From: an uncultured Spirochaetota bacterium
GTDB lineage: Bacteria; Spirochaetota; Spirochaetia; SZUA-6; Fen-1364
DNA length: 64,000 bases
Direction of reading: 5' to 3'
Assembly (NCBI GenBank): GCA_963820525.1
Contig: CAWGAA010000003.1
Span: forward strand, 800,001 to 864,000
Each line of letters opens with the position of its first letter. Positions within the stretch are counted from its first letter, which is position 1. Position numbers: made by a program. Shown here piece by piece: positions 24,001 to 64,000 of this stretch.

Positions 24001-27000
24001 CATCTTCAAGCTCGGGTCGGATCTGGTGGCGCCCTTCAACGCGGCCATCGCGGCGATGAAGACGGACGGCACGCTGGACAGGCTCAACACGAAGTGGTTC
24101 TACGAGTATAGCGCAAAATAGCCCGGTGACCGGCAAACGGGAAGGCGGGGAGCGCTTCCTGCCTTTCGCGGACAGGCTGAAGCGGCTCCCCTTCTGGCTC
24201 CTGGGAATCATCCTGCTCGGCGTGCTGGTGCTCTGGAGCATCGCCAGCAGGAGCGACTACCGGGTCATCTTCCGGGCCACGGCGAAAGGGCTTCTCACGA
24301 CGCTGTGGGTATCCCTGATCGCCTACTTGTTTTCCATCGTCGTCGGCCTGTTCCTCGGCCTGTGCAGGACCTCCCCTTCCCGCGCCATACGGGAGATCGC
24401 CACCTTCTGGGTGGAGATCGTGCGGGGCGTCCCCATGCTCGTGATCCTGTACTACATCGCCTTCATCGGAGCCCCGGGGCTGGTGGAGGCGGTGAACTTC
24501 ATCCTCTCTCCCCTGGTGAGGGCCGGGATCCTGGCGCCCCTGAGTATCAGAAGCATCGATTTCAGCTGGAGGGCCATCATCGCCCTCACCCTCGGCTACG
24601 GCGCGTTCATCTCAGAGATATTCAGGGCGGGCATTGAATCCATCCAGGCCGGCCAGTGGGAGGCCGCCTTTGCCCTGGGGCTTCGAAGGGGACAGGTACT
24701 GCGCCTCATCGTCCTGCCCCAGGCGGTGCGAAACGTGCTTCCGCCGCTGGGCAACGAGTTCGTAGCGATGATAAAGGACTCGGCGCTTGTCAGTGCCCTG
24801 GGCGTGCAGGACGTGACCCAGATGGGCAAGGTCTATGCGGCGAGCACCTTCAAGTTCTTCGAGACGTACAACATAGTCGCCTTCCTCTACCTGTTCCTCA
24901 CCATCACGCTTTCCATGCTCGTGCGGCTTCTGGAGAAAAGGCTGAAAGCCGGCCGAAGCAGGGCCGTGGGCAGGTAGGAAAAATGCGCGCCGCGATGAAG
25001 CGGACGCATGGTTGAAAAAGGAGGCACGAGTCCATGAAAACTGCGGGATCATCTCGAGAAGCCGGCAATCGTGCGGACCCATCCTGGAGGCTGCTCTATG
25101 CGGCAGGGAGCGCCTCGGCGCTGCTTTACGTCATCATGATCGTCATTCCCCTCACTCTTGTGTTCACCTCTCCCCAGCCTCCGAGCTCGGGAGGAGCGGC
25201 CGTATTGCAGTACATCGCGTCACACAAGGCAATCTACATGGTCGAGCTTGTGTGCTTTGTCGGCCTGAGCGTCCCGGCACTCGTCGTTTTCCTCGCTCTT
25301 TCGGTTTCCCTCAAAGAGCTGAACAAGAGCCTGGCTGCAATTGGCGCTTTGATCGGAATTGTTTCCGAAGTCCTGGCTTTGGCGTTGAACAGCAGCCCCC
25401 CGTCGCTCAACGGCAATCTGGTGTACCTCAGCGCTCAATACGCGGCGGCAGCCACCGATGCCCAGCGTCTGGCGGCGGCGGCCGCAGCCGAGGGTTTCAT
25501 CGCAGAGGCGAACGCCGTTTCTTCCGTCGGCTCATTGACCGCGCTCGGCATTCTGATCCTTTCAGTGGTCATGCTGAAGGGCGTCTTCCGCAAGGGTGCC
25601 GCGTACTTAGGCATTGCGACGGGTGTCGTGGGAATGGTCTTTGAAGCTCTCAGACCGCTGATTGGTTTCGCCTATGGCATCTATGGGCTTCTGCTGCCGG
25701 TATGGTTCGTGGTTGTCGGTTTGAAGCTGTATCAACTGAGCCGCAGTCCCCAACCCGGACAGGGGTGAAAAAAGTGAAATTCACAATAACTGCCGGATCA
25801 TGGCGTTATTGCGAAATTCACACAATTAGAGCGGGCTCTTGATCTTGGCGGCGGTTCTCTCCGTGACATGGAGATAGATCATAGTCGTTTTGACGCTCTT
25901 ATGCCCCAGAAGATCCTTTATCGAGCGTATGTCGATGCCGTTTGAAAGCAGAGCGGTAGCGAAAGAATGCCGTAGAGTGTGGCATGATGCCCGTTTTTGG
26001 ATGCCGCTGCCTTCATAGGCATGGGCGAAAATCGCCTGGACCGTTCTCTTGGTGTACGGTTTCCGGCTTTGGGTGAGGAAAAGGAACTCCTTGCCGTCCC
26101 GATCCCGTACAAGAGCCTTTAACTCCGCCGCGAGGGCTTCCGAGAATACCGTGATCCGGTCCTTGTTCTGCTTTGAATTGACTATCCGGACAGTCAGGGA
26201 AGGGAAATCAAGATCCCGGATTTTAATCCTCACGAGCTCACTCACCCTGAGGCCCGAGCCGAACAGCATGGAGATCATCAGGCGGTGCTTCGGGTTACGG
26301 ATCCTTGACAGAAGAATCAGAATGTCGGCTTTTTCCAGGAACGAGGGAAGCCGGTGTCTTGGACGGGCCTTTTCCAGCTTGTAGGGGCAGGGTTTTTTCA
26401 AAACCAGCTCGTAAAACAGCTTGATTGCGTTCCAGGCGATTCGTCTGGCTTCCTGCGATTCATAGGTGGACAGGAACCGGGATATCCTTTCCACAGGCTC
26501 GAATGCGGTCTTCTTGGAAAACTCAAGGAAGCGGCTTAAGCCGTTGCGATACGCCCTGATGGTGTTCGTTGCATATCCGCGGTTCCTCGATTCCCGAAGG
26601 AAAGCGTCCAGATAATGGTCCATGAAAAGCGCACTCCCCTACCTGTGTATACGGCGGGAACGTGCTTGATGATTGGGGAAGATGGTTTATAATGAGGCAG
26701 AAAAAGAGAAATTCACACACAACGAGTTGAACAAAATCGCTCCGCGATGGCTTTCATCAAGCCTTAGTCTTCATTCGCCGCCATGAAAGCAAGACAGATG
26801 TTTCCCGCTTGTTATACAGCATGGGCTATATTGAAGCGGCAACGGTTTTTCCAAGACCCAAATTCGAAGTCGCCGATGTTTTCAGACAAAGCACCCAGTT
26901 ACTGAAAGGCATCAGTTATGATCATTGGAAAGTCGTAAACGCAATCATAAACTGCCGCGGTCCGAAATTGGGCGGCCATAAACTTGTTTGCCATGAATGC

Positions 27001-63000: not shown

Positions 63001-64000
63001 ACCTTAAAATGCGGCCAACCCGGCAATGGCATCCTCCTGCGGGCCGCATGCGCTAAAATCCTGCCCGCCGTCAATGTGGCGCAAGAGGCCGCGTACTGGA
63101 CGACGACCATCGACAGTGCGGGGCAGACGCTGAACGGCAAGCACGATTACGTCCTGCGCTTTCCGGCAGGACAGCTCCCGCCGAACGATGCCTTTTGGTC
63201 GCTCACGATGACCGATGTTGTCGGTTACATGGTGAGTAACCCGATCGATCGCTACAGCGTCGGCGACCGATCCGGCCTCGTGCCGAACGCCGATGGCTCA
63301 ATCGACATTTATATCCAGAGCACGGCTCCGGCAGGCCATGAGGCCAGCTGGCTGCCTGCGCCGGCAGGCAACTTCAAACTGATGCTCCGCGCGTATCGGC
63401 CCGGCCGCGCTGTCCTCGACGGCGAGTACCACGTGCCGCCAGTCCTTAAGGTGCAATGATATGAACAGGTTTATTCTGAAACACAAATACCTCGTTACAT
63501 TCGTCATCCTGGCAATCCTTGCATGGTTCGTCTACAGGCAGTTCATTGTGGTGAGGAGCCCACTCTTTCCGTTCGCCGCAGTGGTAGCCATAGTATGGGG
63601 ACTCGGCACGTTCGTTTTCCTTTATTTTTGGCCGCCCATCACGTACAGTGCCTACAAAAGAGCGATCGTTCAGCATGGGTTCGGCGGCGGTCCAATCCCC
63701 GTCAATACGCTTTACGCCATGCCCCATCTCGCTTCGCCCTCGGCGTCAGGCTCCAGCCTATTAGCAACGGGGACCAACGACGTGCTCTACATCGGTGGCT
63801 GGCTCGACCTCTCCAAAGGGCCGCGAGTCCTGCACGTGCCGGACTTCTCCAGGCGTTACTACAGTGTGCAGTTCACCGATCCCTCGGACGGCGCCGACTT
63901 CGCCTATGTCGGCACGCGTACCACGGGTACGCAGGCGGGAGACTATCTCATTACGGGGCCAGGTTGGAAAGGACAGGTACCGAGCGGTATGACGCAGATA

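Follow-up and report, generated by a model that had tools for sequence, protein, structure and literature searches.

The locus studied here is probably an integron-like gene-capture platform that exists in parallel to the two canonical integrons of the same genome, with its own I2-less tyrosine recombinase, attI site, cassette array and dedicated recombination sites. It lies in the 64-kb stretch of DNA that was analyzed, hereafter the window (C3, contig CAWGAA010000003.1, positions 800,001-864,000, assembly GCA_963820525.1), where about 19 co-oriented cassettes bounded by GC-rich hairpin sites occupy 26.7-64 kb and continue to C3 865.7 kb. At about 25.8 kb, GC content drops from about 0.63 to about 0.47, and a box and hairpin arrangement related to the one found at this edge lies beside a recombinase remnant on C1. 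Neither tRNA genes nor Rfam families were detected in the 64-kb window. The features are listed below in window coordinates, where paired positions refer to the cassette start and its own inverse core, and an arrow marks the crossover point.

25776-25825: left boundary of the low-GC island, where two GAAATTCAC boxes (25776 and 25813) flank a small AATAAC...GTTATT hairpin, immediately beyond the recombinase stop codon.
25826-26623, minus strand: IntI-like tyrosine recombinase of 265 aa (PF00589, 1.6e-39), the proposed array integrase.
26624-26726: region upstream of the recombinase, containing the attI-like junction GAGAAATTCACACACAACGAG↓TT (G at 26726); motif and junction recur at the C1 remnant.
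26727-28230, plus strand: cassette 1, IS91-family Y2 transposase (26809-28011; PF04986 5.8e-60, PF14319, NF033538) with its own 187-nt site (28046-28232).
28231-31324, plus strand: carrier cassette 1, attI imitation in its head (28231-28266), two classical cassettes nested within (classical-site E-values 4.1e-10 and 1e-5) with a 166-aa ORF (attC 28846-28965) and a 670-aa STAND-like NTPase (attC 31035-31146), tail, site A1.
31325-35545, plus strand: Upx cassette (PADLOC), parts 31672-34200 and 34360-35247, site A2; 18/19 positions paired.
35546-37050, plus strand: IS91-transposase cassette, copy 2 (repeat comparison).
37051-37490, plus strand: small cassette with a decayed reverse-strand small ORF, site A3; homologue of 48800-49243.
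37491-38995, plus strand: IS91-transposase cassette, copy 3 (repeat comparison).
38996-40343, plus strand: carrier cassette 2, 182-aa ORF (39293-39841) and classical-site remnant, ending in a core-less palindrome (40320-40362).
40344-43932, plus strand: carrier cassette 3, 407-aa ORF, N6/N4 methylase (41798-42922), REase-like ORF (42919-43566), weak classical-site matches at 41629 and 43796, short site S43; 16/18 positions paired.
43933-46401, plus strand: carrier cassette 4, PDC-S31 (43978-44928), classical attC (44949-45057), 363-aa ORF, site A4.
46402-49243, plus strand: the four following cassettes, 14-18 nt paired.
Ending at 47356, plus strand: 8xMP-like membrane protein cassette, site A5.
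Ending at 47582, plus strand: ORF-less cassette of 226 nt, site B1.
Ending at 48799, plus strand: HNH protein cassette, site B2.
48800-49243, plus strand: small cassette, site B3; homologue of the 37051-37490 cassette.
49244-51423, plus strand: cassette for a 505-aa He_PIG/Ig-domain protein, site S51; 20/21 positions paired.
51424-57199, plus strand: carrier cassette 5, type IIG R-M gene interrupted by a minus-strand gene of IS630 type (52800-53921), then a classical-like attC (55606-55706), the gene for a Fic protein (55781-56962), a classical attC (56977-57076), and the short site S57.
57200-58216, plus strand: PD-T4-3 (GIY-YIG) cassette (1.7e-110), site A6; 19/22 positions paired.
58217-59721, plus strand: IS91-transposase cassette, copy 4 (repeat comparison).
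59722-62711, plus strand: carrier cassette 6, methyltransferase (59814-60560), 137-aa ORF, DDE transposase element (gene on the minus strand, 61008-62522) abutting the AAC of site A7.
62712-64000, plus strand: carrier cassette 7, DUF1214/DUF1254 genes, continuing past the window to a site at C3 864161-864296.
Ending at C3 865727: last cassette, PDC-M34A (split) and PDC-M34B.

A preliminary description had called this array integrase-less. However, a tyrosine recombinase gene divergent from the array adjoins an attI-type G↓TT junction and belongs to the platform, as seen from a second platform on C1 and from orthologues that head like arrays. The junction, about 100 nt upstream of the recombinase start codon, reads ...CAACGAG↓TTGAAC, and its motif recurs at the orthologues L005, L086 and L087, which have GAAATTCAnAC-N6-8-AG↓TTA upstream. 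The C1 platform, which retains the first ~50 nt and the last 40 nt of the recombinase gene together with attI, first cassette and array, is a decayed second copy from which the recombinase was deleted.

TIGR02249 matched the 265-aa recombinase with 191 bits in two stretches (cut-off 265), and its closest PDB match was 2a3v (VchIntIA; 3e-37), of which chain residues 180-246 found no counterpart; the IntI-attC structure was reportedly described by MacDonald et al. in 2006. As had been proposed, its best paralogues are the two IntI proteins (32.7% and 30.0%), and the alignment confirmed that the IntI-specific segment is missing: the segment of the extra (I2) domain spans 35 aa vs. 77 aa in IntI (15 IntI rows among 55 aligned), and the helix is absent between residues 173 and 191 of the structure model (pLDDT 86). 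Since R126, K151, H215, R218, H241, and Y250 are invariant across 35 sequences, the enzyme is predicted to be catalytically intact. An identity as Xer protein was rejected because all the curated models scored under their cut-offs (XerD, 157 bits vs. 329.6; XerC, 152 vs. 335; XerA_Arch, 201.6 vs. 220). Public sources name the relatives of this recombinase 'XerD'.

In two quick trees, the Spirochaetota clade of such head recombinases grouped with canonical IntI (SH-aLRT 91 and 97). In a tree of 124 rows, IntI, this clade and a second I2-less clade formed a trichotomy (support 87); with this wider sampling, the sequences did not resolve a sister position to IntI. These quick IQ-TREE and FastTree analyses were rooted with an outgroup made up only of two Xer paralogues from the same genome. 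The fragments L056 and L092 were set aside beforehand, the long branches L066 and L034 were dropped from the second quick tree and the 124-row tree, and duplicates (L009, L030, L033, L037, L038, L081-L083, L098-L101) were removed; the wider set also omitted every second added representative and those below 240 aa.

The IS91 copy, which the preliminary description saw as separating the recombinase from the array, is in fact its first cassette: its ends are exact at G↓TT, and it has a site of its own that follows the same design. This transposase-only cassette has six copies in the genome, and its G↓TT boundaries are identical in two attI sites and three GC-rich sites; the unit opens with TTGAAC and carries GTTCAAC as inverse core, both words travelling with it. 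The copy in the C3 attI site matches the one in the C1 attI site at 100% over 1510 nt, while identity in the adjoining platform DNA is 87.8%. The transposase (NF033538, 420 bits vs. a cut-off of 125) combines PF04986 and PF14319, i.e., a Y2 HUH enzyme with an N-terminal zinc ribbon, whose H167, H169, and H171 (HUH), Y265, and Y269 are invariant in 34 sequences.

These features raise the alternative, very improbable in our opinion, that the Y2 (HUH) transposase moves the cassettes by rolling circle from their hairpin ends, the array consisting of one-ended products as proposed for ISCR elements. A transposase cassette does lie beside each of the three larger GC-rich clusters, its HUH motif and both tyrosines are invariant, and HUH enzymes act on single-stranded hairpins. 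IS91-family elements have oriIS and terIS ends and insert beside a GAAC/CAAG-type tetranucleotide without duplication; the GAAC and GTTC in the R boxes of the transposase cassette are words that we take to be IS91 targets. However, no transposase match was found in the L001-L005 or G026 loci, although these have arrays. Moreover, each cassette has its own site, G↓TT crossover and paired ends, the signature of site-specific exchange, whereas one-ended read-through would not provide every gene with a matching end of its own.

A profile built from seven window sites and run genome-wide gave 16 matches with E-values of at most 2.8e-19 and three further weak ones. Nine of the 16 lie in C3 831197-865727, all on the plus strand; the remaining ones are at C3 891325 (one), C1 3085117-3095005 (three), C1 2091409-2094249 (two), and C1 2067845 (one). 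The 16 attC previously reported, 12 of them GC-rich, belong to this same array but are an undercount: 17 sites of GC-rich design and one core-less remnant lie in the window and two more just past its end, a total that includes shorter or variant sites recognized by direct reading of the DNA (S43, S51, S57, B1-B3, and those of the four IS91 cassettes). Exact end motifs by themselves only weakly exceeded chance (27 matches vs. 17 expected), being too degenerate to demonstrate enrichment alone. The case for the family is carried by profile and folds.

Boundaries follow integron rules, with crossover at G↓TT and a cassette start complementary to its own inverse core. Of 16 cassettes, 12 showed this pairing over the 14-22 nt that follow G↓TT, and three others showed it over 5-10 nt (strict stop rule), the 16th row having a wrong start coordinate; the cassette 59722-62711 is an exception to complementarity. 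For comparison, the median in canonical cassettes of the same genome was 12 nt (n = 98). Site design differed from that of canonical attC. The right-minus-left spacer was +3 or +4 in 16 of 21 GC-rich sites measured and +2 or more in 20 (C3 891325, truncated, and C1 3085117, with a mutated R', were left out), whereas it was +1 in 97 of 101 canonical sites. All 101 canonical folds open with a 2x1 loop, most commonly followed by two single-base bulges on the 3' arm. GC-rich folds, in contrast, bulge by 3-4 nt on the other arm and mostly lack single-base bulges within the first 11 bp, so that the extrahelical bases on the R''/L'' arm and the nearly symmetric central spacer of integron sites are replaced by a surplus of 3-5 nt on the cleaved arm beside the R box. 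The palindromy of these sites suggests that single folded strands could be the substrate. The same surplus (+3 to +6) was found at the 3' end site in seven of 12 tandem loci of IS91 elements that combine recombinase and transposase.

An imitation of the canonical attI is present in seven carrier cassettes, in which classical cassettes are nested, and all canonical-type sites of the window are within these carriers. The carrier heads share a conserved TTGCGCC-N16-17-TATAAT; because a consensus promoter scan left them unflagged, with 3/6 positions of the first hexamer matched, we describe them as an attI imitation that has a -10-like box rather than as a demonstrated promoter. Apparently, canonical IntI placed the classical cassettes into the carriers, so that the two systems are nested.

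It has been suggested that the two IntI act on the array in trans. Ordinary CALINs built or serviced in this way, with the neighboring recombinase as a bystander, e.g., the leftover of an IS91 element, are conceivable but in our judgment unlikely, being disfavored by site design, co-occurrence and mutual exclusion of the two site families. Two intact IntI genes are present (C1, 0.68 and 1.95 Mb), classical cassettes do occur in the array, recombinases of the superfamily travel with IS91 elements, and the site ends loosely fit RYYYAAC and GTTRRRY. However, neither IntI gene is near a GC-rich array, and the claim that this second family never lies beside a canonical IntI was borne out: none of the 16 profile matches is in or near the two canonical integrons, including the 140-kb canonical array, and the canonical arrays hold about 180 of the 186 genome-wide matches of the canonical profile. 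In addition, recombinase and transposase are divergent here, the former on the minus strand and outside the unit, the latter on the plus strand, whereas the tandem co-oriented form was seen in 19 of 65 recombinase rows from other loci.

Orthologues also argue against action in trans. Transposase-free orthologues of the recombinase, with 54-71% identity, head like co-oriented arrays in four other Spirochaetota genomes (L001, L002, L003, and G026), the attI motif being conserved and the first cassettes differing, although no attI motif was recognized at L001 and L002, where a conserved GC-rich gene intervenes between recombinase and array. The previous count of only one in five close orthologues with such sites came from a search confined to 4 kb. 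Profile matches numbered seven at L002 and two at L001; L003 has two sites of design (1,5), and G026, whose orthologue contains an internal TAG, has one such site and an attI and first cassette pairing at 17/18 positions by eye. At G049, no site was found within the 2.1 kb of sequence at hand. Among 25 genomes of the family, GC-rich sites and a superfamily recombinase occurred together in four, whereas the 21 genomes of genus g3 had neither, 15 of them having canonical IntI, a co-occurrence count that rests on few independent lineages, g3 being one genus. G003 carries GC-rich sites and a recombinase of the IS91-tandem kind (33% identity), IntI not being found there; G035 has one such site and neither enzyme was found, and G027 gave a weak partial match.

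The sites delimit single- and multi-gene cassettes, many of which match defense families, and all the PADLOC matches quoted before were reproduced: Upx (E = 0 and 3.7e-146), MTase_II (3.2e-67), PDC-S31 (1.8e-43), Fic/PDC-S04 (5.7e-16), PD-T4-3 (1.7e-110), the IIG enzyme (2.1e-103 and 2.6e-57, one on each side of the IS630-type gene), PDC-M34A/B, and Helicase_II on C1 (7.2e-59). By homology, the array may function in defense, with three systems broken: Upx, with three in-frame stops between its parts, the IIG enzyme, and the split PDC-M34A. These lesions, the inserted IS630 and DDE elements, and the C1 recombinase deletion would also fit a fossil array, assembled elsewhere or long ago and now immobile, with defense genes as decaying cargo. 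No variant joints were found in the Logan contigs of four runs over region 55700-61000, only loose ends at the shared site core, which weighs little since cover is fragmentary and contigs drop rare variants, making them uninformative on mobility. We consider a fossil improbable: three IS91-transposase cassettes are 100% identical, a further identical pair spans two contigs in diverged flanks, and all catalytic residues of the recombinase are kept, which suggests that the platform may still be active.

In the integron-like platform that we favor, the recombinase would, like IntI, carry out strand exchange at G↓TT with attI and a circular cassette's folded site as partners, or alternatively with two GC-rich sites, reading the spacer surplus instead of the other-arm extrahelical bases. 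The IS91-transposase cassette has spread to six places, and the carriers would offer their attI imitation to canonical IntI for insertion of classical cassettes. A wider proposal, which we regard as possible but rather doubtful, is that IntI forms one branch of an I2-less tyrosine recombinase superfamily, large and widespread, which already used cassette-type hairpins; in most phyla its members would ride with IS91 transposases supplying single-stranded circles, and one Spirochaetota branch would have become a fixed array integrase. If true, single-strand cassette recombination would be possible without an I2 domain, strand choice could be set by spacer surplus rather than extrahelical bases, an IS91-linked module of recombinase and hairpin would have given rise to integrons, and carriers would be portable attI sites by which one integron system ships the cassettes of the other.

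The literature searched did not yield any account of cassette arrays headed by I2-less recombinases or of IS91 elements with cassette-type ends. The available text of one publication states that the I2 domain confers single-strand recombination and occurs in no other protein, and that the closest relatives of IntI are Xer proteins, no phylogenetically inferred ancestor being available (PMC7790495). An I2-less near-relative of IntI heading real arrays, with sites free of the marks that I2 reads, would be a natural comparison point for the origin of integrons and a reason for re-examining loci filed as integrase-less CALINs, and recombinase and GC-rich site would form a directly testable pair of enzyme and site. 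Furthermore, standard integron finders would miss platform and defense cargo, and the nested carriers suggest that a second enzyme can move whole sets of classical cassettes.

Integrons and CALINs are reportedly defined by Cury et al. (in 2016) through intI, attI, and attC arrays, and IntegronFinder-style rules would file this locus as a CALIN. A CALIN, described in the consulted part of PMC7923331 as an attC cluster without integrase, fits only formally (at least two attC, no IntI nearby), since a non-IntI recombinase adjoins the array. The locus resembles chromosomal integrons in the divergent tyrosine recombinase beside an attI-like G↓TT, co-oriented cassettes of ORF and imperfect palindrome, R'' and R' boxes ending in AAC and GTT, circular-cassette complementarity, and IS and toxin-antitoxin-like passengers. 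Unlike IntI integrons, its recombinase lacks the defining I2 domain and its sites have the cleaved-arm surplus in place of extrahelical bases; unlike chromosomal integrons, many of its cassettes carry a conserved 5' block.

Elements that reportedly include the IS1111-attC group of Tetu and Holmes (in 2008) occupy, like the IS91 unit, one fixed place in attC. Such parasites, which also include the group IIC-attC introns targeting attC in the portion of PMC7923331 available, use DEDD transposases or retrohoming, whereas the unit described here has cassette ends and its own cassette-type site. With the IS91 subgroup that has an upstream tyrosine-recombinase gene, the locus shares the transposase family, the end anatomy (G↓TTGAAC...GTTCAAC-hairpin-G↓TT), and I2-less recombinases of one superfamily. 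ISfinder names for this subgroup include ISWz1 and ISAzo26. The text available for PMC11322121 lists ISWz1 as an IS91-family member. In our locus, in contrast, the recombinase lies outside the mobile unit, divergent and heading the array, while the unit consists of the transposase only; the subgroup recombinases are deeper relatives, the window recombinase belonging to a separate Spirochaetota clade nearer IntI. Finally, as far as the accessible text of two studies shows, integron cassettes serve as anti-phage defense stores in canonical IntI integrons (10.1101/2024.07.02.601719, PMC12614218). The array described here is alike in its single- and multi-gene defense-type cargo and, judged against those texts, unlike in its other recombinase and site family and in its three broken systems.

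At about 25.8 kb of the window, the G+C content drops from about 63% to about 47%, and from there to the window end the genes all run in one direction with GC-rich palindromic elements between them. A site profile built on seven window elements was searched against the 5.05-Mb genome of this uncultured freshwater-sediment spirochaete, which gave 16 strong matches (E <= 2.8e-19) and three weak ones. Matches were found on C3 (the contig of the window) and on a second contig, C1:

C3 831-866 kb, all + strand: nine matches to the GC-rich profile
C3 891 kb: one match
C1 3.085-3.095 Mb: three matches
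C1 2.091-2.094 Mb: two matches
C1 2.068 Mb: one match, a fragment

As the preliminary description had stated, these sites lie away from the canonical integron integrases, with no profile match in the neighbourhood of either canonical intI gene (C1 0.68 and 1.95 Mb). When shorter and variant sites were included, the count for the window rose to 17 sites of GC-rich design plus a core-less remnant, with a further two sites past its end.

The GC-rich sites start with ...AAC and end with GTT.... Twelve of 16 cassettes begin, directly past the preceding G|TT, with 14-22 nt that are reverse-complementary to the sequence running up to and including the AAC of their own site (18 of 19 positions in the Upx cassette), as expected if cassettes are circles opened at G|TT. 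Three further cassettes paired over 5-10 nt under a strict stop rule, and the remaining row was void because of a wrong start coordinate. Canonical cassettes of the same genome pair likewise (median 12 nt, n = 98). The GC-rich palindromic elements are cassette recombination sites.

Several cassettes and sites showed particular features. The core-less site at 40320-40362, GGCGCAACGGTCTATAA-TTGGAG-TTATAGGCCATTGCGCC, in which 6 nt join two extended R arms, resembles either a classical double-stranded core site or what a deletion would leave of a GC-rich site. The 226-nt cassette at 47357-47582 contains no ORF; 18 of 19 positions pair between its ends, and it shows the design of the GC-rich family, here combined with a core of the B type. 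The small cassettes at 37051-37490 and 48800-49243 are homologous (about 75% identical) and share a small ORF on the reverse strand, which only the second copy retains intact. The first is closed by a site of subtype A3 and the second by one of subtype B3, so that a cassette body can change its site partner. A DDE transposase element of 1.6 kb (protein of 504 aa with DDE_Tnp_1_6 and DUF772 domains) is present at window 60937-62585, C1 3086313-3087940 and C3 873701-875312, the third copy indicating more cassettes at C3 873-879 kb. Always antisense to the array, its end ...CTACAGAATC directly abuts the AAC of three different sites (two A-type, one B-type), and it may be another site-targeting IS.

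All PADLOC defence matches reported previously for the cassette proteins were reproduced. The defence-type matches of the arrays were:

Window array: Upx, defence-type match, interrupted by three in-frame stops
Window array: methylase and REase-like set, defence-type match
Window array: PDC-S31, defence-type match
Window array: HNH protein, defence-type match
Window array: IIG enzyme, split by an IS630-type gene
Window array: Fic protein, weak match
Window array: PD-T4-3, 1.7e-110
C3 array: PDC-M34A and PDC-M34B, the former frameshifted
C1: Dcm/HATPase/Z1/DUF4420/Vsr set, defence-type match

The PD-T4-3, PDC-S31 and carrier-3 methylase cassettes are intact. From these sequence matches we infer that the cargo would function in defence.

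The ORF at 25826-26623 (- strand) encodes a tyrosine recombinase of 265 aa, whose catalytic R-K-H-R-H-Y set showed no variation in 35 relatives. Its closest solved relative is the integron integrase VchIntIA, both by sequence (3e-37) and by fold (6e-18, with XerA just behind), and residues 180-246 of VchIntIA remain unmatched in the alignment of the two. Among 55 aligned rows, the 15 of canonical IntI have a 77-residue segment that measures 35-43 residues in the 265-aa recombinase and all other full-length rows. The protein falls below the cut-offs of curated integron-integrase and Xer models, and its relatives are labelled XerD or 'tyrosine-type recombinase' in public sources.

The first cassette is joined on at GAGAAATTCACACACAACGAG|TTGAAC, about 100 nt upstream of the recombinase start. 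A second platform at C1 3.0970-3.0973 Mb is arranged alike, except that its recombinase gene carries an internal deletion. Between the two platforms, identity is 87.8% in the attI region but 100% in the first cassette (1510 nt), where it ends at G|TT on both sides; the same cassette thus entered two diverged attI sites. That the array is a fossil we consider improbable, weighing the stops and the frameshift in its cargo and the deleted C1 gene against this shared cassette; public contigs of four sequencing runs, compared with window 55700-61000, revealed no variant joints, their cover being fragmentary.

Orthologues of the recombinase are also flanked by such sites. One of 69% identity has seven profile matches upstream, all oriented away from the gene, another (71%) has two, and a third (53%) is accompanied by two sites that share the design. 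In genome G026, the orthologue (54% identity, one internal TAG) is accompanied by ...TTGTAG|TTATGTCC, a first cassette with 17 of 18 positions paired between its ends on visual inspection, and a second cassette. In three loci whose sequence ends within about 300 nt (L005, L086 and L087), GAAATTCAnAC-N6-8-AG|TTA is followed by differing cassette starts. Nothing array-like was found in the 2.1 kb available for the locus of a further orthologue (G049). A strict scan of both strands of the genome (5 Mb) for a surplus of 3-5 nt in the right spacer (on the + strand, the unpaired stem-to-GTT length minus the AAC-to-stem length) yielded no more than 24 sites, 11 of them in the C3 array; given this rarity, the matches beside orthologues are not due to chance.

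The surroundings of the recombinase gene contain three copies of a near-palindromic box, G(T/C/A)GAAATTCAC, at 25776-25786 and 25813-25823 (past the stop) and at 26708-26718 (attI). This box recurs at the C1 remnant (C1 3097100-3097330) and upstream of the L005, L086 and L087 orthologues, and could be an accessory site of the recombinase or a regulator box.

Of the 25 genomes in the same taxonomic family, four have both the site family and a superfamily recombinase. Both were absent in 21 of 21 genomes of one genus, 15 of which carry canonical IntI. This comparison spans few independent lineages. Exceptions among the 61 genomes searched were one with a single site (G035) and one with a weak partial match (G027), and neither enzyme was found in these. 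The array had been described as integrase-less; the attI-like junction, the second platform, the array-flanked orthologues and the co-occurrence tie it to the recombinase. On this comparative sequence evidence, the 265-aa enzyme is probably the integrase of the GC-rich-site arrays. The alternative, in which the canonical IntI act in trans and the neighbouring recombinase is a bystander, would fit poorly with the genus that has canonical IntI and no such sites, and we regard it as rather unlikely.

The 'IS91 copy' previously placed between recombinase and array proved to be itself a cassette. This 1.5-kb unit has six copies in the genome, four in the window, one at C1 3.096 Mb and one, 5'-truncated, at C1 2.098 Mb. 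It always starts with TTGAAC after G and ends in its own 187-nt site ...TTTACG|TT, with 18 of 20 positions paired between its start and inverse core, and it is inserted at three GC-rich sites and two attI-like junctions. It encodes a full-length IS91-family transposase in which HUH and both tyrosines are invariant. That a Y2 transposase moves the cassettes, for which this intact protein might speak, is most improbable beside cassette ends of this kind. An IS91-type transposase is also encoded in 27 of 80 recombinase loci examined, and in 19 of 65 recombinase rows it lies on the same strand within 400 nt after the recombinase; such two-gene units start G|TTGAAC..., like the IS91 cassette of the window.

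Seven cassettes, here called carriers, open with GTTATgcGCCATTGCGCC-N11-17-(T/C)ATAAT-N5-6-TG|TTAG. The canonical attI junction is ...CTCTATAATATAAATG|TTATATCC, verified via pairing with the first canonical site. All canonical-type matches in the window (28846, 31035, 44949, 55606 and 56977) lie inside carriers, as do weaker or partial ones (39926, 41629, 43796 and 46230), and in carrier 1, pairing between the cassette past the inner junction and the classical site belonging to it extends over 12 of 12 positions. Because of these heads and this confinement, carriers look like portable attI sites filled by canonical IntI. The canonical integron itself is very large: its attI junction lies at C1 683489, and C1 0.68-0.83 Mb contains 175 profile matches, every one of them + strand. 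The canonical regions noted are C1 683489-824263 and 1956606-1963662; a strict pattern found 101 canonical sites of 107-111 nt.

Two quick trees placed the Spirochaetota array-heading clade (11 rows) with canonical IntI (SH-aLRT 91 and 97) and the IS91-tandem recombinases nearer two Xer outgroups. In a 124-row FastTree, IntI, the array-heading clade and one other clade lacking I2, the extra domain of IntI, formed an unresolved trichotomy (support 87). The best 150 matches of 1.8 billion representatives all aligned in one stretch, without the IntI insertion. Based on the trees and these matches, IntI appears to be nested in a large I2-less family, the trees leaving its exact sister group unfixed. 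Among proteins P0261-P0388, many of the I2-less relatives have lengths of 350-600 aa and an N-terminus extended by some 100 residues or more. Our literature search found no account of I2-less recombinases heading cassette arrays, nor of IS91 elements with cassette-type ends.

With respect to known integrons, the storage of defence genes in cassettes has already been published (bioRxiv 10.1101/2024.07.02.601719 and PMC12614218). The sites differ in design. Of 21 GC-rich sites measured, 16 had a surplus of 3-4 nt; among the others were two IS91-cassette sites with 2 nt, one site with 7 nt and one poorly matched site with 0. In canonical sites the surplus was 1 nt in 97 of 101. The site of the first G026 cassette has the same surplus design, and 3'-end sites of IS91 recombinase-transposase elements from other phyla have spacers of (3,7), (2,7) or (3,6) in seven of 12 tandem loci, plus locus L060. 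In bottom-strand folds, a 2x1 internal loop opens 101 of 101 canonical sites, followed in the commonest folds by two single-base bulges on the 3' arm, the classical extrahelical bases. In GC-rich sites, the cleaved 5' arm bulges by 3-4 nt, and the 11-bp stem is usually unbroken. A role of I2 at the extrahelical marks of attC was reportedly described by MacDonald et al. in 2006. These marks are read by the I2 domain of IntI, as stated in PMC7790495. Comparing recombinase and site features, the I2-less enzyme goes with sites devoid of the marks that I2 reads.
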